Part shown: positions 1-64,000 of the stretch, one piece after another | Numbering within the stretch: position 1 is the stretch's first letter | Layout of the letters: every line of letters begins with the position of its first letter | Sequence record: PP761450.1 | Reading direction: 5' to 3' (one strand) | Length of the DNA: 64,000 bases | Source of the DNA: Escherichia phage LHE287 | The notes under the pieces: model-generated | The model's input: the letters and a program-made list of their open reading frames with translations, nothing else | What the model was told of the DNA's origin: nothing | The model's database searches: none | Position numbers and translations under genes: made by a program

Positions 1-229
1 CAGAGCTATCAAAGTTGTGTCCAACCCGATCTTACAAGCCCGTATCCCGGTCTGGTTAAGACTTGTAAGTGGAAAGCCCTGGAAAAATAAACGCCTGTGG
101 CGAGGCTATGGTGCAAGCCAAAGACCCACAGAAGCGCATGCCGTGAGGCGCACAAACAGGCATGCATGAACTGATCATGCACAAACGGGATAAAGGGTTG
201 ACAGTCCTTGGTTGGCCACACAATAATTT

Positions 230-306
230 GGTCCTGTAGCTCAGTCGGTTAGAGCAGTGAACTCATAATTCATTGGTCATTGGTTCAAACCCAATCAGGA
301 TCACCA
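230..306 (+). tRNA. tRNA-Met (anticodon CAT; could be a lysidine-type Ile tRNA)
   Basis: Cloverleaf: acceptor GGTCCTG/CAGGATC, D-arm TAGCTCAGTCGGTTAGAGCA, anticodon stem-loop GTGAA-CTCATAA-TTCAT, T-arm ATTGG-TTCAAAC-CCAAT, 3' ACCA. Confidence 0.8.
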
Positions 307-650: not shown

Positions 651-724
651 AGGAGCATAGCTAAGCGGTAAGGCAATGGGTTTGATCCCATGATCTCAGG
701 TTCGACTCCTGACGCGCTCTCCCA
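651..724 (+). tRNA. tRNA-like element, possibly a degenerate tRNA; anticodon unresolved
   Basis: Canonical T-arm TCAGG-TTCGACT-CCTGA and D-loop AGCGGTAA, but the acceptor stem pairs poorly and the anticodon hairpin ATGGG-TTTGAT-CCCAT has a 6-nt loop. Confidence 0.3.
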
Positions 725-2853: not shown

Positions 2854-2988
2854 TCCCTCCTAAATACCCCATACAACCAGTGTGGGGTATCTATGAAACC
2901 TTCCTCCAATATTTCCTAGAGGCGTCCTGTACAAACCAGGCCTGGCACCTAAATACCCCCATATGGCTAACCCACTGAGGAACCCAAC

Positions 2989-3447
2989 ATGCCAACCTCC
3001 AAATTGTTTGAATCAGAATACACCAATGACATCCCTGTATGGACTGGTGTTCAAGACGGTATCACGATTGAGCTGTTTGATCGTGAAGAGACAGGCGCGG
3101 AAGAGATCTATGCAGGCGTTGAAGGCACTGATGTTGTCCGCGCCGCCGTAGCACTTGCTACCTTCCTGGAAGATGCACCGATTGATGGTGTGCCGTTCGA
3201 GGCGCACGTAGATCCCAAGGATCCGACCTCTATCATCATTACAGTGAATGGGGTGCCATACACTTCCTACAGTATCGAGACGGACGAAGAGGGCAGCGGA
3301 GCGCTGTATATTGCCACCGACCTGCAGCTGGAAGACGATGAGATGGATTATCTGATTCAGAACGGGGTGCTGCCACCGTTTACCGATGAAGAACTGGACA
3401 CGGAACTGGCTGCTGTCGGGGACGACGAAGACTTCTGGGAAGAATAA
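2989..3447 (+). CDS. highly acidic protein (152 aa), candidate DNA mimic
   Basis: Asp/Glu-rich throughout (EELDTELAAVGDDEDFWEE); RBS GAGGA; followed by a bidirectional terminator. Confidence 0.55.
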   Translation: MPTSKLFESEYTNDIPVWTGVQDGITIELFDREETGAEEIYAGVEGTDVVRAAVALATFLEDAPIDGVPFEAHVDPKDPTSIIITVNGVPYTSYSIETDEEGSGALYIATDLQLEDDEMDYLIQNGVLPPFTDEELDTELAAVGDDEDFWEE

Positions 3448-3472: not shown

Positions 3473-4024
3473 TCATTTCACCTTGCGAGTTGGATATTGG
3501 TTAAAGAGTTTGCCCAGCTTAGACACGTTGATGATTGTCTGGGTCTTCCAGCGCTGGATCCCTTCCGGGGTAGTCACGGTCAGGATTGAATGCCCCCAAA
3601 TGTGGGAACCGTCCAGCACAGCCGCGCTGTGGCTACCAATCTTGTCTTCCAGTTTGCAAATGAAAGATTCATACTGATGGGCAGCGTTGCAACGGGCTTC
3701 CTTGATGAACAGACGCTGGCGCTCTGGATCAGACTTGACGATGTTAGGCGCACCCACTTGATAAGAGCGGTTCGGCGGGTTATTGTCGGCGGTCAGGCTC
3801 ATATACAAAGACTGCTTTGCCTTCATGCGATGGTAATCGTGGTGACCCATTCTGACGCCAACAGTGGATGGCCAAGGAGCGCACTTCTGAAGATCCCAGC
3901 CGTTGGCGGCTAGATCGTCCATCACGTTCTTGATGATTTTGTTCGCGTACTGCTCGGCAGCTTCTTCGGCCTGCGACAACAGAGGCTCAACAGCGATACG
4001 GACAGCAGTTTTTGGCATTGTCAT
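3473..4024 (-). CDS. hypothetical protein (183 aa)
   Basis: ATG with AAGGA RBS on the minus strand; no recognisable motif. Confidence 0.55.
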   Translation of the reverse strand: MTMPKTAVRIAVEPLLSQAEEAAEQYANKIIKNVMDDLAANGWDLQKCAPWPSTVGVRMGHHDYHRMKAKQSLYMSLTADNNPPNRSYQVGAPNIVKSDPERQRLFIKEARCNAAHQYESFICKLEDKIGSHSAAVLDGSHIWGHSILTVTTPEGIQRWKTQTIINVSKLGKLFNQYPTRKVK

Positions 4025-4047
4025 GATATAGTCCTTCAGTTCAAAGT

Positions 4048-4065
4048 AAGCCCCCTGAGGGGCTT
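4048..4065 (-). terminator. hairpin downstream of the minus-strand gene (terminator or RNA-stability element)
   Basis: AAGCCCC-CTGA-GGGGCTT stem-loop; only a weak T-run. Confidence 0.35.
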
Positions 4066-4072
4066 CAGTCGA

Positions 4073-4630
4073 TTAGAAGCGGGAATCCAGCCAGGCGTTC
4101 TTTTCGTTCTGCCACTCCCAAGCGGCCTGACCGCCAGCCATGATCACTTCCAGGGAAGGAGTATTGTCATCCTCGCCGCCGTGAAGGTCAGGGTCGAAGC
4201 CGTCGTCTTCAGGATCGTCTTCACATTCATTCTGATAAGCGGAATATTCGATGTAATGGGCTTCGGCTTCGCAATCCATGTCACCCAGAGCTTCCTCGAG
4301 GGACATTTTGCCTTCGGCAATCAGCTCGGCAGTCGCATCGTCCAGGCCTGCGTCTTTCGCTTCAACGAACAGTTCGTGACGTTTCTGGAAAAGGAAGAAG
4401 TTCATGGCTTCAATGCGTGAGTCGAAGTACTCTTTGCGGGGAATCATGATTTCACGACCATCGACTTTGCTTACCATCAGCAGGTGTGAACCGTATTCAA
4501 CCAGGTAGCGACCGCCTTTCACTGGGTTGGAACCGTCAATTGTACCCAGAGTGGTGATTGCGCGGCCTTCTTCAGTACCGTACATTACAGTTTTGCCAGA
4601 TTTGGATTGAGCGATAATTTCGATTGCCAT
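4073..4630 (-). CDS. hypothetical protein with acidic C-terminal tail (185 aa)
   Basis: ATG with GAAGGAAA RBS; C-terminal DDPEDDGFDPDLHGGEDD. Confidence 0.55.
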   Translation of the reverse strand: MAIEIIAQSKSGKTVMYGTEEGRAITTLGTIDGSNPVKGGRYLVEYGSHLLMVSKVDGREIMIPRKEYFDSRIEAMNFFLFQKRHELFVEAKDAGLDDATAELIAEGKMSLEEALGDMDCEAEAHYIEYSAYQNECEDDPEDDGFDPDLHGGEDDNTPSLEVIMAGGQAAWEWQNEKNAWLDSRF

Positions 4631-4675
4631 GATGTATTTCCTTCTCTTCAGATTGTTGTTCGTACTACAATTAGA

Positions 4676-4704
4676 AGTATACGCCAGTTATTGAAGAAGT
4701 AAAC
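4676..4704 (-). promoter_or_regulatory. T4-early-type sigma70 promoter (GTTTAC-17-TATACT) for the minus-strand gene 4073..4630
   Basis: Minus strand reads TTATTGAATAAA-GTTTAC-ttcttcaataactggcg-TATACT, followed by the RBS and ATG of the downstream gene. Confidence 0.45.
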
Positions 4705-4721
4705 TTTATTCAATAAATATT

Positions 4722-4934
4722 TTAATAAATTTTGAACTCTGCTCCCTTGTACGTTGCCGATCCTCGTTCTATGAGGCCGTCAGGGACAATTACCTTTGTC
4801 GGCCAACCACCATCTGGAGCCTTAACAGTCAGGCGCGTCTTGTGATCTCCCAGCTGTGTTTGTTCATAGATCCTTCCGCGTACTATCGTCGCCCCGCCCT
4901 GGGTGACGAGCAATCTCTTGTTTACCACATTCAT
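4722..4934 (-). CDS. small hypothetical protein (70 aa)
   Basis: ATG preceded by AGGGA RBS. Confidence 0.45.
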   Translation of the reverse strand: MNVVNKRLLVTQGGATIVRGRIYEQTQLGDHKTRLTVKAPDGGWPTKVIVPDGLIERGSATYKGAEFKIY

Positions 4935-8628: not shown

Positions 8629-8654
8629 TTCAATAAACCAAAGGGGGATATAAT
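8626..8654 (+). promoter_or_regulatory. sigma70-like promoter TTGATT-17-TATAAT with the -10 in a hairpin loop
   Basis: TTGATT overlaps the polymerase stop codon; 17-nt spacer; TATAAT forms the loop of hairpin GGGGGA-TATAAT-TCCCCC. Confidence 0.45.
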
Positions 8655-13034: not shown

Positions 13035-13057
13035 TCTGACTGGGTTGCTTCCTTCAA

Positions 13058-13099
13058 TAAAGGGGAATGGGTTATTATTAGCCCGTTCCCCTTTCTTTT
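13058..13099 (+). terminator. rho-independent terminator
   Basis: AAAGGGGAATGGG-ttattattag-CCCGTTCCCCTTT followed by CTTTTT. Confidence 0.6.
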
Positions 13100-13201
13100 T
13101 GCAAGAATATACATCATGGCAATGCAACGAATTGAAGATATGTCTCTACTCAACATGGAAGCGACTTTTAGCGCTTCCGTTATCGTCATGGGAGAATCCA
13201 A

Positions 13202-13420
13202 ATGATCAAGAATACCCGAACAATGAAGCGCGCAATCGCTCACTGTGTCCATTCAGTGGCAACTATTATGTTCCGCCACCACATCACATTTGATGAAGCA
13301 CTGGACCCACAGTACCATGAAGAGCGTTGGGATTTGTTGTTAAAGAACGGCGCCAATCCTGAGCATAAAGATCAACTCCTTGGGATGACCAAGGCGCAGC
13401 TCGTCGGTGAATCCAAATGA
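13202..13420 (+). CDS. hypothetical protein (72 aa)
   Basis: ATG with GGAGA RBS; stop overlaps the next start. Confidence 0.45.
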   Translation: MIKNTRTMKRAIAHCVHSVATIMFRHHITFDEALDPQYHEERWDLLLKNGANPEHKDQLLGMTKAQLVGESK

Positions 13421-15538: not shown

Positions 15539-15552
15539 TCGTTCTTCAATAA

Positions 15553-15586
15553 AAGGGGATAGGGTATTATTGCTCTATCCCTTTTT
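15553..15586 (+). terminator. rho-independent terminator
   Basis: GGGGATAGGG-tattattg-CTCTATCCC followed by TTTTT; preceded by a TTCAATAAA box. Confidence 0.6.
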
Positions 15587-16802: not shown

Positions 16803-16829
16803 AAAGCCCTCAGCCGAGGGCTTTTTCAA
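16803..16829 (+). terminator. rho-independent terminator
   Basis: AAAGCCCTC-agcc-GAGGGCTTT followed by TT. Confidence 0.7.
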
Positions 16830-16901
16830 TTGAAGACACCCACCGTATTATACCCACTCAACCAATATGTTCCCCTTTGACATTGATAGGATTTCTATAC
16901 T

Positions 16902-35211: not shown

Positions 35212-35261
35212 AATCTAGTCCTAAATAGCCATAACACTCTATCTATTTAAGGGCTGAGACC

Positions 35262-36241: not shown

Positions 36242-36796
36242 ATGAAATATTTTGAGAAGTTTCCACTTGTTTGGCATCAATTGCAAGATGTCCAAGAGAA
36301 TGATCAGGTGCTGTTACAGAATTTAACGCGCCGGGTGATGATCTTACAGAAAATTAAGGACATCGAAGGGCTTCTCCTGCCGTATACGATCCAAGATGGG
36401 GAAACCCCAAGGTCTTTCGCAGAACGCGTTTACGGATCCTTCGAGTTGTTTTGGATACCTTGTCTGATAAACGGCATCATGGACATCAATAAGGACTGGC
36501 CGAAACCGGAACGCCGTATTGTTGAAGAACTGACTGCAGATTACGGCATCGATGGTATGTGGGATACAGCCTATTATGTCGACCAGTTCAACAATGTGAC
36601 CGACGCCCGTGCTATCAAATTTGCATATAACCTAGACCTGGATGAACCGTCCATAATTGCTAACTATGGTCTGACGGCAGTTTCATATCATGATGATGCA
36701 ATCAGTAAGAATGAAGCCAAACGGAACATCCAAGTACTCGACCCAGATTATGTGTCTTCGTTTGTCAATCAGCTGGAGCAGGAGTTGGCGAAATGA
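36242..36796 (+). CDS. hypothetical protein, probable structural (184 aa)
   Basis: ATG with GAGAGGATG context; stop overlaps the next start. Confidence 0.35.
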   Translation: MKYFEKFPLVWHQLQDVQENDQVLLQNLTRRVMILQKIKDIEGLLLPYTIQDGETPRSFAERVYGSFELFWIPCLINGIMDINKDWPKPERRIVEELTADYGIDGMWDTAYYVDQFNNVTDARAIKFAYNLDLDEPSIIANYGLTAVSYHDDAISKNEAKRNIQVLDPDYVSSFVNQLEQELAK

Positions 36797-43386: not shown

Positions 43387-43640
43387 AGTCTGTTCCTTCT
43401 GTAAGTTCCCATGTATTATATGGGTGAATAGTTTATTGAATTATTTGTTATGAAACCCAGAGCCTTGCGGACTTCTTCACGATTTTTAATTTCGGTCTGA
43501 GCCTCTGTGCGATTAATCTAGCGCTTGTGATGTCGGGAGAGGGCTTTGTAAACAAGCCTTGGCGTCAATGGCATCGATTAGACAACGGATCTCAGCGCAT
43601 CAGAGGCTTGCCCAACAGCCAGTTGAAATACTTGCGCATG

Positions 43641-43853: not shown

Positions 43854-43969
43854 CAACGTTTCCTCTTAAAGGGGATGACCAGGGCTATGATGAGAAGCAT
43901 AGCTGTAATCATCCCACATGCTATCAGACCAAAGGCGAACGACTTCAGAACAAACTCAATCAAATTCAT
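43853..43969 (-). CDS. small hydrophobic peptide (38 aa), not in the ORF track
   Basis: MNLIEFVLKSFAFGLIACGMITAMLLIIALVIPFKRKR; GAGGAAATT RBS; ATGA and TGATG overlaps with both neighbours. Confidence 0.3.
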   Translation of the reverse strand: MNLIEFVLKSFAFGLIACGMITAMLLIIALVIPFKRKR

Positions 43970-45192
43970 AATTTCCTCAATTTGGCTCTAGTGACCTGAG
44001 TTTGTTTAACGCCGTTGTACTCAGTCAGTTCTTTGACACGACCACGGATGATCATATCGCCCTGCAAGAACTCTGTATCCATATAAGAGGTCTTCCAGGT
44101 AATTGTATTGCCTTCTGCTGTTTTGAAAGTAAACAGGTAACTATCACCATATTCATTGGAGAAGAGAAAGGTGCGCTTGTCGAACCTGACTTGCACTTCC
44201 AGCATTTCACCGACTTCACCCACCCATTTGTTCTCCGCCTTGCGGTCAGTACGAGGACGATGGATGTAATCGTAATACTTCTTGGCACCCCAGCGGACTG
44301 TGTTGTTATCCTTGATGAGGTGATAGCCGGGTTCACACATGCGTTTCAGGCGGACATTGAACTCATTGGATTCGGACAGCGCACTGATGAAGAGCTTCAT
44401 ATGGTACATTTCCGACTCGGCATCTTCACGGTATTCGTGTGCCTTGTTTACGAAATACTCTTCATCGGAACCTGCTTTTGGTTTCTGGTGAGACCGGACA
44501 TAGCCCAGTACTTTGTCAAACAGTTCAGACTTGATATCCACGCCTGCCAGCAACACTTGGAAGCATGCGCGCAGGTAACTGTGGGTGTCGGTGAAGCGCT
44601 CATTTTGGACGCGATATATACCCTCTGGGTCGTCCTCGTCTGGCATGAAGAACTCTTGGATTTCCAGATAGTAAGACATAATCGCGTCAAGGGACTTCTG
44701 ATGAGGCACATAATGATGCATACAGGTGCTACCAATCAGCATCTGGGTATGCGTTTCCTCATTTTCAATCACATACGTGTTCTTGCGACGGATGGCTAGA
44801 TTGCAATGCTGACACCAAGAGACGTTCTCTGTCTCGAAGCGACGGATGAAGTCAGGATTGATGTTGTCGGACAGGCGGTTAAGAATAACCTTTGGATATT
44901 CGTGATTGAACTGACCGATGATCTTCCAGCCACCATAAGAGATGGGGCGGTCAATGCCTTCGCCTTCGAGAGTAACAGGTTTCCACCAGTGAGTAAGGAT
45001 CTCACCAGTGAAGTCGCGGGTGTGGGTTTTGAAGGGTTCACCATAAGTCACGGTCGGAAACGGAACACCCAACCTTTCGGCAGTGCGCTCGAGCTTCTTC
45101 AGTCGCTCAACTACCAACCCTTCATTGTCGATCGGAATATTGAATGTTTTGACGTTCATTTCCAGCCTCATGATGTAGTTGTAACTCTTCAA
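43966..45192 (-). CDS. hypothetical protein (408 aa), possibly primase-related
   Basis: Lies where T4 places the primase gene after the helicase; has a Cys/His cluster (WCQHCN...STCMHH) but no clear TOPRIM motif. Confidence 0.3.
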   Translation of the reverse strand: MKSYNYIMRLEMNVKTFNIPIDNEGLVVERLKKLERTAERLGVPFPTVTYGEPFKTHTRDFTGEILTHWWKPVTLEGEGIDRPISYGGWKIIGQFNHEYPKVILNRLSDNINPDFIRRFETENVSWCQHCNLAIRRKNTYVIENEETHTQMLIGSTCMHHYVPHQKSLDAIMSYYLEIQEFFMPDEDDPEGIYRVQNERFTDTHSYLRACFQVLLAGVDIKSELFDKVLGYVRSHQKPKAGSDEEYFVNKAHEYREDAESEMYHMKLFISALSESNEFNVRLKRMCEPGYHLIKDNNTVRWGAKKYYDYIHRPRTDRKAENKWVGEVGEMLEVQVRFDKRTFLFSNEYGDSYLFTFKTAEGNTITWKTSYMDTEFLQGDMIIRGRVKELTEYNGVKQTQVTRAKLRKL

Positions 45193-45245
45193 TACAGATT
45201 AAATATTAGGCGATTATTTCTTGAAAGTAAAGTTATTGAAGTAAA

Positions 45246-45285: not shown

Positions 45286-45600
45286 TTATTCGCCACTGAC
45301 ATTCGGATCTCGATCGGGCTTGGCGTTCGGGAATAGAGACTCGTATAAGTCTTGATATTTCTCGCTCGTTTCGATCGTCTTATGGTAAGTTCCATTGGCG
45401 CGGTCGGATACAACCTTGCGCAAGTCGCTGGCCTTGATACCCGTGTCTTTCGCCAGCTCGGCCAGAGTCTCAGTGATGAAAGTCTGTTCCGACTTGATGC
45501 GGACCTGGGCAGCACGACAGTTTTCAATTGCACCTATCAGCTTGCGACGGGATTCAGGATCAGATGGTAGTACATAAAAGCCGATTTGTTCTACAGACAT
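45286..45600 (-). CDS. hypothetical protein (104 aa)
   Basis: ATG-initiated ORF. Confidence 0.45.
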   Translation of the reverse strand: MSVEQIGFYVLPSDPESRRKLIGAIENCRAAQVRIKSEQTFITETLAELAKDTGIKASDLRKVVSDRANGTYHKTIETSEKYQDLYESLFPNAKPDRDPNVSGE

Positions 45601-45951: not shown

Positions 45952-46015
45952 GATGTGCTCCTGGTTTACATTCAGATCATAGAATTATACCCTATGACCC
46001 GCTTTATTGAATTGC

Positions 46016-50486: not shown

Positions 50487-51529
50487 ACTACACCTTCCAG
50501 GAACTTAGGATCAATGATCTTGCGGTCAACCGGGGAATGGGTGAGCGCGATGTTCAAGCCATGATCCTGAATCAGGTCCAGGTTAATGAGCTTTTCGTTC
50601 AGTTTGCAGTGCAGACAGTACGCCATCTGTACAATCAGGCCACGATCAGCATCATATTCCTTCAGGTGGGCGACCACAGTTTCCCACGGGCTGCCGATAT
50701 CACAGTGATGAAGCACACCAGTGAACAGATTGCGGATATGGTTCTGGTTGGTCACGTTCGTGAAGTGAATCATGGAGTTGATGAACCCAGCTTCTACTTT
50801 GGTGTCCTTCGTGATCTTGCCAAGCTGCTTCTGGCTGACTTCATTGTTGTAGTAATGAAGATTGTTAGAGAATAGCTTGTACTGACCGACATCAACATCT
50901 AACACCTGAGCAATCACTTCCTGAAGAATAGAGAACTCAATGAAGTTGATTGAACTCATCCCCCACAGAACATCCTGTGAGCGGTTGATGACCGTCAGGT
51001 TCAGACGACCTTCAACGATGGAGAACAACAGAGCCAGATTACACACCATGTCCTTGGTCTTCGCTTCGCCGCTCTCGCTGAACTTCGCCAGACCAGCATC
51101 CGAATCTAGAGCCGGGTCATAGATGGTGAGGTACGCCTGGCGAGTGTTTGGGTTCTTGCGCAGGCGGTTGATAACGCTATCCAGCTGGCCATGGGCGTAC
51201 AGACGCGGACCATAAGCAGCTCGCCATGTTACCCCATCATCCGAAAAGTTAGCAGCGCGAGGCAATACGCGTGACAGGAACTTTATGTCGTTGCGACCTG
51301 ACAACACCCAGAAGGTCTCGCCGATGGCAGCGATAGCCGATGAGTTGCGACCTTCAACGGAGAGCCAGCGGTCACGGATGTCGGCGACGGTTATGGTCAC
51401 GCCATCAAGGAAGCGGGTGCTATCAGTATTGATTTCAGCATTACCAGGATCAGATTCGATCCCGAATTCACGGATAGCCAAGACAGCCTGCTTCAGCATG
51501 TCATTGTTGTTAATTGCTTTGATTTCCAT
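50483..51529 (-). CDS. thymidylate-synthase-family enzyme; candidate dUMP hydroxymethylase
   Basis: ThyA-fold motifs RQAYLTIYDP, Cys in KDMVCNLALLF, and NRSQDVLWGMSSINFIEFSIL (RSxD ... NI/F region; Asn suggests a dUMP substrate); the hydroxymethylase role is inferred from context. Confidence 0.6.
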   Translation of the reverse strand: MEIKAINNNDMLKQAVLAIREFGIESDPGNAEINTDSTRFLDGVTITVADIRDRWLSVEGRNSSAIAAIGETFWVLSGRNDIKFLSRVLPRAANFSDDGVTWRAAYGPRLYAHGQLDSVINRLRKNPNTRQAYLTIYDPALDSDAGLAKFSESGEAKTKDMVCNLALLFSIVEGRLNLTVINRSQDVLWGMSSINFIEFSILQEVIAQVLDVDVGQYKLFSNNLHYYNNEVSQKQLGKITKDTKVEAGFINSMIHFTNVTNQNHIRNLFTGVLHHCDIGSPWETVVAHLKEYDADRGLIVQMAYCLHCKLNEKLINLDLIQDHGLNIALTHSPVDRKIIDPKFLEGVV

Positions 51530-52188
51530 CAGATACTCCCAAAATCACGACAGAGGAATGCCATCACAGCCTGGTCTACTGTTAGGCCGTGAGACTTCAT
51601 CATACCCGCAGCCACCGTAGGGAACAAGTCTTTATGTCGTTGACGATGGTCATGAACTCTCTCCCACTTCTCGACCACCAGACTTTCATTGAAGTCCACA
51701 CCACCGTTACGTGATTTAACGCGGGAGATACACGTTTCAAGGGGAGTGTCCATAAAGAGCACAACCAATTCACGTGGTGGGCGTGTCAGGCGGGGGATCC
51801 AAGAACTCAATAATGTGGATGGAATGATACCTTCGAAAATCACATCATATTTCAAGTATTCTGGTTGGTCAGCAATAGACAACGCGAACAACATCTGCTC
51901 AGTGTCCTTCAGGGAATCAACCCCCTTGGACTTCGACTTGTCATATTTACCGATACAGACCACGTTGAACGAAGGACAGACAGTCAGCATGACCTTGCCG
52001 TTATGGGTCACGACATACGCCTGAGGATCCCTCTCCGCCAGCTGAGACGGCACAGTGGATTTACCGCTACCATTGGAGCCTTTGACGTAGTAGATTTGCC
52101 CTCGTGCTGGGTAGATCCCCTTTACGACGGGTGGTTTAAAGAATGTGTGGACGGGGCGCTTCATCAGCCCCTTCAGGGAGTAGGACAT
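51529..52188 (-). CDS. P-loop kinase, paralog of 10120..11037
   Basis: Walker A GSNGSGKST, Walker-B-like DVIFEGIIP; same motif order as the other P-loop kinase; first gene of the coupled operon. Confidence 0.5.
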   Translation of the reverse strand: MSYSLKGLMKRPVHTFFKPPVVKGIYPARGQIYYVKGSNGSGKSTVPSQLAERDPQAYVVTHNGKVMLTVCPSFNVVCIGKYDKSKSKGVDSLKDTEQMLFALSIADQPEYLKYDVIFEGIIPSTLLSSWIPRLTRPPRELVVLFMDTPLETCISRVKSRNGGVDFNESLVVEKWERVHDHRQRHKDLFPTVAAGMMKSHGLTVDQAVMAFLCRDFGSI

Positions 52189-52263: not shown

Positions 52264-53100
52264 TTACACAGCTTTCGCTTCAGCCAGAGCCTGTGGAAGC
52301 CATTCATTGATCGCCTTAACCAGAGACTCAGCATCAGACTCTTTGATCTTCTGACGTTTGGTGAAGGACTTGCCGTTCACGTACAGGCTGAAGCCCCAGC
52401 CACCGGAAACGATAGGCGCAACGTCGACATACGTATTGGTGCGGGCGTGAAGGTTTTCAGGGTTAGCCAGTTCGGTGACCGGGAACTGGAACCAACGCAT
52501 GTCTGGGTTCACGTAGCTCAGGAACACGCCGGGAACAACACCAGCTTCAATCGCCGCCAAGACCGGACCGTGATCAGAAGCGCGAGCCAAGTCAACCATT
52601 TCCTCACGTTTGGTGTGACGGCGTTTACGCTCTACCAGCGCCGCCTGCGGAGTCAGGGTCTTACCCTTCGATGCTTCTTTCAACATAGAAGACGCCAAGG
52701 AACCGATTTTCGCGTCGGACGGCTGATTACCTTCTTCCAGCGCCGCGTTGACTGCATCTTCAACCGCGTCTACCGGGGCGTCGGACACTGGGGCTTCACA
52801 TGCATCGGCAGAGATCGGTGCTTCAGCATCAATGGTTTCAGCGACTTTCAGGGATACTTCAGCTTGGGCTTGCTCTTGGGCTTGCGCCAGAGCCTGCTGA
52901 GTTTCTTCCTTCTCTTCGGCGCTCAGACCTTCAATCAGTTCGAAGCCGTTGGCAGCCTGAAGAACACCTTCAACCATACGGCGCAGGGTAACGTTTCCGA
53001 TGATCAGACCTGCTTCTTTGATTTCAGCCTGGATAGCCGCAACGTCTTTGCCTTCAATTTCAATTTTGGTTCCAGAATCCACATGAAGAATATATGACAT
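52264..53100 (-). CDS. hypothetical protein with acidic low-complexity centre (278 aa)
   Basis: ATG-initiated ORF; central Ala/Glu/Gln-rich region. Confidence 0.45.
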   Translation of the reverse strand: MSYILHVDSGTKIEIEGKDVAAIQAEIKEAGLIIGNVTLRRMVEGVLQAANGFELIEGLSAEEKEETQQALAQAQEQAQAEVSLKVAETIDAEAPISADACEAPVSDAPVDAVEDAVNAALEEGNQPSDAKIGSLASSMLKEASKGKTLTPQAALVERKRRHTKREEMVDLARASDHGPVLAAIEAGVVPGVFLSYVNPDMRWFQFPVTELANPENLHARTNTYVDVAPIVSGGWGFSLYVNGKSFTKRQKIKESDAESLVKAINEWLPQALAEAKAV

Positions 53101-53170
53101 AATAAAAACCCTTTCGTTATTAAGACCGTATCCGCGGCATATTGTTGTTCTGACTGTGTAGTGAGAACAT

Positions 53171-53198
53171 AATATACTGCATTTTCATAGATGTAAAC
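53171..53198 (-). promoter_or_regulatory. T4-early-type promoter GTTTAC-16-TATATT
   Basis: Minus strand reads TTCAATAAAAAGTA-GTTTAC-atctatgaaaatgcag-TATATT upstream of gene 52264..53100. Confidence 0.4.
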
Positions 53199-53289
53199 TA
53201 CTTTTTATTGAAAAGAAAGTTAACACCTAAGTGTTATAAGGTGCGCGACCAAGCGGAGCGCGAACTTGCGTGAATATTAACTTTCTACG

Positions 53290-58867: not shown

Positions 58868-58918
58868 GTAAATAGCCCATAACGAAGTTTCATTGGTGTA
58901 TGGGCTATTTACGCCGGG

Positions 58919-59413
58919 TTAACGGGTGATGATTTTGCTATCAGGCAGGATCAGACCAGGGTGGTCCAGGTTCTTCTGCATCTGTTGGATACTCTGCAGG
59001 ATCACGGTAGTGTCGATGTGGCGTTTCACTTTGCGCGCTTCATCACCGTAGGAGATCTGCCCCTGAGGATCGATGTAGTGGGCTGTCACAACCTGCAGAT
59101 CATAACCGCACTTGATCAGGTACTTAGCAATGTTGCTAACTTCGAGAGACAGGGACTCACCGTCCACACCAATGTTGGCTGAGTAGACGATTACGCCATT
59201 TTCTACTGCTTTTGGTTCAAACAAAACCATACCAGCGATCGTCTGGATCAAAGGAACTCCCTCGGTATCGAAAGCCACCTGATCGAACGCACCGATGAAC
59301 TCATCCGGCACTTTACCTTCGGCATCAGAAACTGTGTGTTTCATAAGGTCCAGGACGTGTTGTTGTACTTCCTCAATCGGAGCACGTTCAACGGGTTTTT
59401 CGTTTTGCATTAC
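58919..59413 (-). CDS. hypothetical protein (about 165 aa)
   Basis: Internal ATG with GGAGA RBS chosen (the track ORF extends further into the upstream gene). Confidence 0.4.
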   Translation of the reverse strand, partial: VMQNEKPVERAPIEEVQQHVLDLMKHTVSDAEGKVPDEFIGAFDQVAFDTEGVPLIQTIAGMVLFEPKAVENGVIVYSANIGVDGESLSLEVSNIAKYLIKCGYDLQVVTAHYIDPQGQISYGDEARKVKRHIDTTVILQSIQQMQKNLDHPGLILPDSKIITR

Positions 59414-59918
59414 TTTTCTCCAGTTCATAATCGCGCTCCACAACGTATTGGTAGACACGCATCTTAATATAGTCAGCACTGCCTGCTGAAGACAGCACCA
59501 TCCATCCACTACTAAGGGCATTCATCTTATATTGACCAACACCCTCTTGAAAATAACTTTTAATCTGTTCCAGCTTTCGCCCACGATGATAATACGAGAT
59601 GAGTTCGCCGATGACAATACAATCTGGATAATGCTTTTCCAATGTATTGATGTTGCGGTGAACATATACGGGTAGAACTTCTTCATCGTCGATAGGGCTG
59701 TAGTATGGGTCTACGATGACCACTTGTAGACCATAACGCAGCAGGTCTTTGACACCCAGCCGACAGAACTTATAATCTTCGTGTTTCATTGCCACATGGA
59801 GGATATTCTCTTTCTTGGCATAATCGGTCAGGAAGATAAAGAAGTCTGTGTTGGGATCGGGATATTGTATAGACAGTTCTTTGCCTATTTCACTAAAACA
59901 AAATCCGCGCATTTTCAT
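59388..59918 (-). CDS. hypothetical protein (176 aa)
   Basis: ATG-initiated ORF. Confidence 0.45.
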   Translation of the reverse strand: MKMRGFCFSEIGKELSIQYPDPNTDFFIFLTDYAKKENILHVAMKHEDYKFCRLGVKDLLRYGLQVVIVDPYYSPIDDEEVLPVYVHRNINTLEKHYPDCIVIGELISYYHRGRKLEQIKSYFQEGVGQYKMNALSSGWMVLSSAGSADYIKMRVYQYVVERDYELEKSNAKRKTR

Positions 59919-60915: not shown

Positions 60916-60942
60916 AATCCCGCTTCGGCGGGATTTTTATTG
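60916..60942 (+). terminator. rho-independent terminator
   Basis: AATCCCGC-ttcg-GCGGGATT followed by TTTTATT. Confidence 0.75.
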
Positions 60943-61280
60943 GCTTAACTGTAAAATCGGTTAACACGAACTTTCTTTACCTGAAATTGCTATAATGGGC
61001 TTGTTCCCGAGTTATTTGTTGGTGTTTGTCTGTTTTGAATCAGATTGTCAGTAAAATACCATTTTTCAAGGAGTGTTCTGGGGTGTACAGTTATTGCCTC
61101 GCCCTTATGCCTCCATGGCATTGGAATGGTGCTGCCCGCATAGGGCGGTTTGATGAGCGAAGCGAATAGGATCGAATAAAACAAATAAAATGAACGGAAG
61201 CAGAGCTTCCTATAGTATATAAGGCAAAATCAGCTGCGCATAAATACCTTCAAATCCTTGTTTGACAACCGGAATTCAAT

Positions 61281-63432: not shown

Positions 63433-63894
63433 CTACTCCGCCAGGGTGATCACAACCATATTTAAGACTGTGTCGATAGCTCGGCCTGTTTCCTCTTCAT
63501 GGAGGGTTTCGGCGCGGAGGTGCACGTCGGTGATGAAGTTGTCAATATGCATCGAAGTCAGGTACGGGCGGTGCTGGGATAATGGACGGTTGGTCATCAC
63601 ATAATTGCGCAGTGTGTTGAAGTCCTTCTGAGAGCACTCTGTGGTATCGATACGGAGGAAGCGTTCGTTGTGTCTTGTCTTCAACTCAGTTGCTTTCCCG
63701 AGGTAGACCAGAGGTCCATTGCGACCGATACGGAACATGACATCAACAACAGACTTGAAGATTTCGCGTTCAATCAGTGCGGTGGGTGACCAGCAGATCT
63801 CTTCTTTGTCGTCGGCGTACAGGGTGTCGATCACCAGAGGAAGCTGAATGTAACCGAAGTTGTGCAGTGGGTTGGTAAGTACCTTGTTTGTCAT
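63433..63894 (-). CDS. hypothetical protein (153 aa)
   Basis: ATG-initiated ORF convergent with the gp25-like gene. Confidence 0.45.
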   Translation of the reverse strand: MTNKVLTNPLHNFGYIQLPLVIDTLYADDKEEICWSPTALIEREIFKSVVDVMFRIGRNGPLVYLGKATELKTRHNERFLRIDTTECSQKDFNTLRNYVMTNRPLSQHRPYLTSMHIDNFITDVHLRAETLHEEETGRAIDTVLNMVVITLAE

Positions 63895-64000
63895 GATATA
63901 GTTCCTGCTTTCAATTTGTGGCGAATGCCAATGAATTACTGGGAAGTATAAGCGCAGGGATTATAGAAGTAAAGCCCCTCAATGAGGGGCTTTGGCTTGT

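Follow-up and report, generated by a model that had tools for sequence, protein, structure and literature searches.

We conclude that two sites on the minus strand of a 64,000-nt stretch of phage DNA (the window), site 1 at 4676..4704 and site 2 at 53171..53198, are real, ordinary and largely known promoters, for which the label "T4-type" is only partly apt. Both are present, belong to a pattern enriched in the window, lie between genes, face the next gene and are conserved among related phages. We put at about 0.7 the probability that both function as ordinary -35/-10, sigma-70-type promoters within a family of cassettes resembling the PeSLs (promoter-early stem-loops) of T4-type phages. The main functional evidence comes from sequence comparison, i.e., hexamers and spacing that are fixed across four or five genera while the flanks diverge.

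Under this reading, host RNA polymerase with sigma-70 would read both sites without any phage protein, using at each a TTTAC(T/A) -35 and a TATAnT -10 with 15–17 nt between them (sigma-70 register), preceded by an A/T-rich UP-like stretch. Each site would stand just past the end of an upstream transcription unit and restart transcription into the next genes, which are small genes without assigned function for site 1 and, for site 2, the head gene, likewise without assigned function, of a block whose products serve thymidine hypermodification, nucleotide metabolism and replication. The two would belong to a small family of related cassettes, with at least four in the window and more in the rest of the nearest genome (Escherichia phage YX22), some of them sharing spacer and leader. 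Sigma-70 recognition, start sites and early timing are what we infer from these features.

Architecture and conservation of the two sites

BLAST of both site regions placed the window in the Ackermannviridae, subfamily Aglimvirinae, nearest to YX22 (99% identity) and, at ~96% identity, to the Agtrevirus AV101. With this placement and a G+C content of ~50%, the phage is not T4. The gene map was transferred from the AV101 annotation and leaves 7.9% of the window intergenic. Some counts below refer to a 154-kb composite genome made of the window and the remainder of YX22. Conservation was read from two alignments, A1 for site 2 (window, LIMEstone1, Vi01, IME250 and Klebsiella phage May) and A2 for site 1 (window, CBA120, EspM4VN, Kamild and IME250), which together span Agtrevirus-like, Limestonevirus, Kuttervirus and Taipeivirus genomes, i.e., four or five genera. 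Gene content differs from AV101 at 3473..4024 (minus strand), ~2923..2926, 13122..13202, ~27252 and ~30531, and these differences adjoin terminator/promoter cassettes; a 183-aa gene is found only in the window, and several small or homing-endonuclease genes only in AV101.

A preliminary description of the window had reported GTTTAC-N17-TATACT and GTTTAC-N16-TATATT on the minus strand at 4676..4704 and 53171..53198, and both are there exactly. Site 1, read from 4704 to 4676, is GTTTAC-TTCTTCAATAACTGGCG-TATACT (N17). It is intergenic and directed at the next gene, 4073..4630, whose ATG is 45 nt away. Its features are:

4705..4741, minus strand: A/T-rich UP-like stretch, with box TTGAATAAA at 4705..4713
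4699..4704, minus strand: -35 region GTTTAC; in the sigma-70 register TTTACT at 4698..4703
4682..4698, minus strand: spacer, 17 nt from GTTTAC and 16 nt from TTTACT, with box TTCAATAAC at 4687..4695
4676..4681, minus strand: -10 hexamer TATACT, without TGn; the preceding three bases are GCG
4631..4675, minus strand: predicted leader, with GAACAACAAT at 4652..4661 and a Shine-Dalgarno-like AAGGAAA
4073..4630, minus strand: downstream gene, 185 aa; phrog_4823 (E = 1.8e-117), a PHROG without assigned function

Against the sigma-70 consensus, the -35 (TTTACT) matches at 4/6 positions and the -10 (TATACT) at 5/6, i.e., 9/12 in all with a 16-bp spacer in that register, and transcription would be expected to start near 4668..4671. 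The A/T-rich upstream element described earlier at this site is borne out by ~29 nt of nearly pure A/T (28/29 bases, a figure of composition that does not address alpha-CTD binding). The stop codon of the upstream ORF (4722..4724) falls inside this stretch, and conservation upstream of -53 partly reflects the coding sequence of that neighboring ORF. Within the site, TTATTGAA (4709..4716) and the spacer box TTCAATAA (4688..4695) form an inverted repeat (4688..4716, minus strand) that brackets the -35 and has an operator-like look; a fold through both boxes was not significant (z = -1.6). The 185-aa product had no match in a Pfam search or in a PDB sequence search.

In alignment A2, TTTACTTCTTCAATAA and TATACTTC are invariant in all five sequences, as is TTTACT, while the G before it becomes C in IME250; the boxes of the upstream stretch are likewise invariant across genera. 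In CBA120, promoter and leader are identical base for base save for a 3-nt insertion, within surroundings (600 bp) that are ~86% identical, and Kamild retains the spacer length despite 6–7 differing bases. The gene behind the promoter is less constant: in EspM4VN, promoter, leader and ATG are retained with a different ORF behind them, and Kamild continues, only a few bases past the -10, with the terminator equivalent to window 4025..4072, the gene being absent. Such retention of the promoter in front of a replaced or deleted gene would mark a module boundary and is also known from PeSLs (PMC2839356). Paralogues of site 1 elsewhere in YX22 have spacer and leader sequence in common with it, through short blast matches of 14–21 nt. 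The long intergenic region at window 60918..61280 (363 nt, before gp5) shares short repeats such as GAGCGAAGCGAATAGGA with two other long intergenic regions, elsewhere in the YX22 genome (blast matches of 25–41 nt, 95–96% identity).

Site 2, read from 53198 to 53171, is GTTTAC-ATCTATGAAAATGCAG-TATATT (N16), again intergenic and directed at the next gene, 70 nt before the ATG of 52264..53100:

53221..53236, minus strand: hairpin UAACAC-UUAG-GUGUUA directly upstream of the site, followed by a T-rich run
53199..53220, minus strand: A/T-rich upstream stretch, with box TTCAATAAA at 53204..53212
53193..53198, minus strand: -35 region GTTTAC; in the sigma-70 register TTTACA at 53192..53197, a 5/6 match to TTGACA
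53169..53176, minus strand: -10 region, TATATT at 53171..53176 (N16) overlapping TATTAT at 53169..53174 (N18)
53101..53168, minus strand: predicted leader of ~64 nt, with GAACAACAAT at 53141..53150
52264..53100, minus strand: downstream gene, 278 aa; phrog_3905, a PHROG without assigned function
51529..52188, minus strand: 5-hmdU DNA kinase (PF18748, E = 3.6e-109), thymidine hypermodification pathway

Either -10 matches the consensus at 5/6 positions, giving 10/12 in all. In the sigma-70 register, the spacer is 15 bp to TATATT or 17 bp to TATTAT; it is 16 bp in Vi01, IME250 and May, and other genera have TATAnT at N17 from (G/C)TTTAC. TGn is missing here too, the bases before the -10 being CAG (or GTA). 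The lack of TGn and the scores of 9/12 and 10/12 point to moderate rather than very strong promoters. A/T accounts for 21/25 bases upstream of site 2 (composition only), and this stretch also supplies the T-rich tail of the adjacent upstream hairpin. The hairpin folds at -13.7 kcal/mol over a 61-nt stretch (z = -1.9), and LIMEstone1 and Vi01 keep its stem; it has the look of a weak terminator that would act on transcripts arriving from upstream; the fold of the promoter stretch itself was not significant (z = -0.3).

In alignment A1, TTTACA and AGTATAnT are invariant in all five sequences against a mean column identity of 66%, and the leader is far less conserved between genera than this core. 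The upstream box is kept as TTTTCAATAAAAAGT in LIMEstone1 and Vi01 and appears as TTTTTATAGAAAA in Taipeivirus.

The 278-aa product of 52264..53100 had no match in a Pfam search or a PDB sequence search. By the AV101 gene order, its gene heads a long minus-strand run that continues with the 5-hmdU DNA kinase and then thymidylate-synthase-like, dUTPase, UvsX, gp41-like helicase and ligase genes. The presence of the kinase and the replication genes fits a pre-replicative role, and from sequence and gene content the timing is probably early. Several public records label the gene 51529..52188 "terminase small subunit", "tk" or thymidylate kinase.

Promoter classes across the window

A scan of the window for GTTTAC-N15-18-TAnnnT, the kind of check that the preliminary description had proposed, returned 4 matches (3 loci) vs 0.63 expected, a count reached in 0/100 shuffles, so that the pattern is enriched. 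The third locus, 45964..45993 (plus strand), is probably a chance match; it lies antisense in intergenic DNA and shares bases with the hairpin of a TTCAAT-type site. A second scan, for TTTACW-N15-17-TAnnnT (sigma-70 register), gave 7 matches (6 loci) vs 1.39 expected (0/100 shuffles), and 4 of the 6 loci are intergenic and face the next gene: sites 1 and 2, and two further class members:

45203..45231, minus strand: TTTACT-N17-TAATAT, upstream of 43966..45159
63945..63973, minus strand: TTTACT-N17-TATACT, upstream of 63433..63894

The first of these is directly preceded by TTCAATAAC and a terminator hairpin, its CBA120 orthologue reads TTTACT-N17-TATCAT, and the LIMEstone1 record has a "putative middle promoter" at the orthologous spot. 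In the second, the -35 is the tail of a terminator hairpin. This arrangement recurs in the TTTACT class, where the -35 is often the U-rich tail of a terminator, and G+C-rich hairpins precede both of these members. In their CBA120 orthologues, hexamers and 17-nt spacing are held and the spacer sequence is altered, which is a signature of promoter selection. The orthologue positions in the CBA120 record are ~144084 (site 1), 38559 (site 2), 30521 and 49801. Overall, the conserved -35 core is TTTAC(T/A); the leading G is replaced by C in IME250 and in 2/4 window members. Distances from TTTACT to a -10-like hexamer in the 154-kb composite likewise single out N17, with five cases vs at most one each at N8–N16, N18 and N19, and side counts of three at N4 and at N20.

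A consensus match alone proves little, as generic sigma-70 scans came out barely over background (32 vs 23 ± 4.7 expected; 31 vs 20.1 ± 5.1). Canonical TTGACA showed no spacing peak in either the 154-kb composite or CBA120, and TTGACA promoters were ruled out as the main class on this ground and because the sole perfect site is intragenic and unconserved. That 12/12 site, TTGACA-N16-TATAAT at 59749..59776 (plus strand), falls within 59388..59912, a minus-strand gene, and is directed at gp26; CBA120 does not conserve it, which makes a lineage-specific or chance origin probable. A near-consensus TTGACA-N18-AATAAT (11/12) at 198..227 (plus strand) stands directly before tRNA-Met (230..306) and is the likely promoter of the tRNA cluster. 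After tRNA-Tyr, a third, weak tRNA-like sequence at 651..720 (plus strand) scores 32 bits in Rfam (threshold 29) and has no ARAGORN call; the CBA120 tRNA cluster also ends with a degenerate tRNA (Kutter et al. 2011, PMC3184105).

With four members in the window, the TTTAC(T/A) sites form a minority class. The genome is dominated by another promoter-like architecture, TTCAAT-N14-TATAAT, to which sites 1 and 2 do not belong. Measured from TTCAAT in the composite, -10-like hexamers show a sharp peak at 14 nt (12 cases vs ~1 per other spacing), and the peak is also seen in CBA120; the window alone has 6 sites of this class vs 0.39 expected. When 80 intergenic, correctly oriented -10-like hexamers were aligned, information was found only at -23..-13, as tTTTTCAATAA, while 678 coding control hexamers aligned likewise gave no signal. 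Sites from the window scan include:

8629..8654, plus strand: TTCAAT-N14 site
13053..13078, plus strand: TTCAAT-N14 site
15545..15570, plus strand: TTCAAT-N14 site
43415..43440, minus strand: TTCAAT-N14 site
45984..46011, minus strand: TTCAAT-type variant with N16

The -10 of TTCAAT-N14 sites often lies in a hairpin loop, and several of the hairpins are clear terminators (e.g., -26.5 kcal/mol, z = -5.9; -24.2 kcal/mol, z = -6.5). The box itself extends beyond this class: TTCAATAA occurs 14 times in the window vs 1.96 expected, and exact TTCAATAAA copies are intergenic in 7/7 cases in the window and in 6 more in the remaining YX22. At sites 1 and 2, however, TTCAAT boxes lie 8 and 26 nt (site 1) and 30 nt (site 2) from the -10, not 14. 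A box 14 nt from the -10 centers near -30, too close for a sigma-70 -35. The T4 MotA box, placed 12 ± 1 bp from the -10, has this geometry (Hinton 2010, PMC2988021).

Upstream of rIIA (~16823..16832, plus strand), the box takes the form of a perfect palindrome, TTCAATTGAA. Together with the inverted repeat of site 1, this palindrome hints that TTCAA(T) may be a protein-binding half-site. As a box-binding protein, the 104-aa "transcriptional regulator" encoded at 45286..45600 was considered and set aside, its only hit being phrog_639, with no Pfam or PDB match.

The motif TTCAAT[N14]TATAAT of ViI-like phages ("Viunalikevirus") reportedly goes back to Adriaenssens 2012 (Arch Virol). It shares with sites 1 and 2 the genome, intergenic niches, the TTCAAT(AA) box and a TATAAT-like -10; the two sites differ in having a separate -35 at normal spacing. 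TTCAAT[N14]TATAAT and CTAAATAcCcc have been presented as "two unique regulatory motifs" of ViI-like phages (Thanh et al. 2020, PMC7283392). For the second, the window has two exact CTAAATACCCC copies at 2860..2870 and 2949..2959 (both plus strand), before 2989..3447, and variants at 35221..35231 (plus strand) before gp48 and, in the 58.9-kb intergenic region, at 58868..58878 (plus strand) and 58902..58912 (minus strand). Other structural genes in the window have TATAAATA- or CTAAATAcCcc-like motifs in front, and the position of the TATAAATA-like sequences before structural genes suggests a late-promoter class.

Relation to T4, PeSL cassettes and LIMEstone1

The preliminary description had called both sites T4-type early promoters, on the strength of GTTTAC as the characteristic T4 -35. 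The printed T4 early promoter consensus does have a GTTTAC -35, and our T4 control agrees: its first 50 kb contain 14 GTTTAC-N15-18-TAnnnT matches vs 3.06 expected, with 13 on the early-transcribed strand, all of them N18 (13/13) and 8/13 with TGn. Sites 1 and 2 have in common with these promoters the TTTAC core, the A/T-rich upstream stretch and a TAnnnT -10; as in T4, they stand before small and pre-replicative genes and are presumed to use unmodified host sigma-70 polymerase. T4 early promoters are of the UP/-35/TGn/-10 type (Hinton 2010, PMC2988021). The exact GTTTAC and the A/T-rich upstream stretch uphold the comparison, and the lack of TGn at both sites departs from it. Spacing is N17 at site 1 and N16, or N18 with the alternative -10, at site 2, next to the uniform N18 of T4, and the density of GTTTAC-type sites in the window is ~5-fold below that of T4 per kb. 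The window phage also belongs to another family, has ~50% G+C, modifies thymidine rather than cytosine, and does not conserve the G of GTTTAC. ViI-like phages lack Alt, ModA, MotA and AsiA (Kutter et al. 2011, PMC3184105).

PeSL cassettes, known from T4-type phages (RB49 and phi1; Arbiol et al. 2010, PMC2839356), offer a parallel in layout. Their stem-loops lie before, between or over the promoter boxes, and promoter/terminator activity and copy-to-copy recombination (mini-circles) have been demonstrated experimentally (PMC2839356). The cassettes seen here are like them in repeating an intergenic sigma-70-like promoter with A/T-rich upstream sequence, stem-loop, Shine-Dalgarno and ATG, recognized in our case from sequence. 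They also seem to share an association with small genes lacking assigned function and with insertion, deletion or replacement boundaries. As to the stem-loop, site 2 has its hairpin directly upstream, whereas site 1 has only the non-significant A/T inverted repeat. Unlike PeSLs, the cassettes show no homology to those of RB49, and copy-to-copy similarity is shorter and patchier.

Site 2 has a direct orthologue, with an identical TTTTCAATAAAAAGTGGTTTACATCTATGAAAATGTAGTATATTATG in front of the corresponding gene, in the Dickeya phage LIMEstone1, whose RefSeq record (NC_019925) calls it a "putative early promoter" (-35 at 36554..36559, -10 at 36530..36535; Adriaenssens et al. 2012, PMC3296691). 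The label is a prediction made from likeness to T4 boxes. For site 1, the record annotation shows nothing in the corresponding LIMEstone1 region. The earlier proposal that the host polymerase transcribes these genes is favored by the -35, -10 and spacing conserved across genera and by the LIMEstone1 label; it concerns a minority class and does not describe the main architecture of the genome, and its timing, immediately after infection, is inferred from the sequence and the genes involved. Two parts of the picture are already known, i.e., the site 2 orthologue annotated in LIMEstone1 and the published TTCAAT-N14 motif (PMC7283392), and it is in itself routine to predict a sigma-70 promoter in a phage genome.

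Competing readings and significance

The alternative that survives best is that a phage DNA-binding protein at the TTCAATAA boxes switches the two sites on or off, as middle promoters or as early promoters that are later repressed. It could draw on the excess of TTCAATAA (14 vs 1.96 expected) and the wholly intergenic placement of exact TTCAATAAA copies, on the same box standing at a fixed 14 nt from TATAAT-like hexamers in the main class, on the invariance across genera of the site 1 boxes and their inverted repeat around the -35, on the site 2 box at about -48..-40, and on the "middle" label that LIMEstone1 gives to the orthologue of 45203..45231. However, with boxes 8, 26 and 30 nt from the -10, the 14-nt geometry of the main class is not the one found at these sites, and their complete -35/-10 pairs at workable spacing need no activator on paper. 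A UP-like element or a terminator tail accounts equally well for an A/T-rich box above the -35. The literature reports neither MotA nor AsiA homologues for the family (PMC3184105), and no binding protein was identified. We consider this account improbable as a replacement for plain sigma-70 promoters, which remain the preferred reading; under that reading, a phage factor may also act on both sites, given the over-represented TTCAATAA-type boxes there. A caveat for sigma-70 recognition of T-rich elements at both sites is the modified base of these phages, as ~40% of thymidines in ViI-like virion DNA are replaced by 5-NeOmdU (PMC5889632). Our literature search found no transcriptome or start-site study of any Ackermannviridae phage.

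It is very improbable that conservation instead reflects recombination cassettes or RNA-level signals, the -35/-10 likeness being incidental to A/T-rich sequence. Insertion, deletion or replacement boundaries do fall at promoter and leader in EspM4VN and Kamild, paralogues share spacer and leader beyond the hexamers, in several members the -35 coincides with the U-rich tail of a terminator hairpin, and the leader decamer GAACAACAAT is common to both sites. Yet hexamers and spacer length are held while spacer sequence changes, as under promoter selection, and recombination and promoter function coexist in PeSLs (PMC2839356), so that recombination would be an addition to promoter function and not a true alternative. 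For the leaders, we rejected both RNA structure and membership of a known RNA family, with Rfam matches in the window limited to tRNAs and neither promoter fold significant (z = -1.6 and -0.3). The decamer was likewise rejected as a regulatory element, being conserved at site 1 but not kept between genera at site 2, and not significantly enriched in the window (10 vs 6.36 expected, allowing one mismatch). It follows both sites at about +9 to +24, and paralogous cassettes have similar C/A-rich leaders.

Functionless chance matches in A/T-rich intergenic DNA, to which one might appeal because loose sigma-70 matches are common in any sequence and the GTTTAC pattern has just 3 loci in 64 kb, are effectively refuted by conservation, the sites being invariant where adjoining genes are only 70–86% identical, and are further opposed by the observed counts (reached in 0/100 shuffles) and by the intergenic, correctly oriented position of both sites in a window that is 7.9% intergenic.

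With sites 1 and 2 read as sigma-70 promoters, a wider scheme can be sketched, which we hold to be speculative and on balance doubtful: Ackermannviridae would run a two-tier pre-replicative programme in which the few TTTAC(T/A)-N16/17 promoters, sites 1 and 2 among them, are the only ones for naked sigma-70, the far more numerous TTCAAT-N14 sites are used through a phage protein binding TTCAAT(AA), and the same protein later silences early promoters through TTATTGAA/TTCAATAA at site 1. Such a programme would be analogous to the early and middle modes of T4, built from unrelated parts. The contrast of the TTTAC(T/A) sites with the TTCAAT-N14 class raises the question of which factor would recognize a TTCAAT box at -30 when MotA and AsiA are absent. 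Early promoters of CBA120 were not identifiable by informatics (Kutter et al. 2011, PMC3184105), and a 2024 review of the Ackermannviridae does not mention promoters or transcription. Phages of this family find wide use in biocontrol and phage engineering, and for them the conserved TTTAC(T/A)-N16/17-TATAnT sites are concrete candidates for the promoters of the first transcription units.
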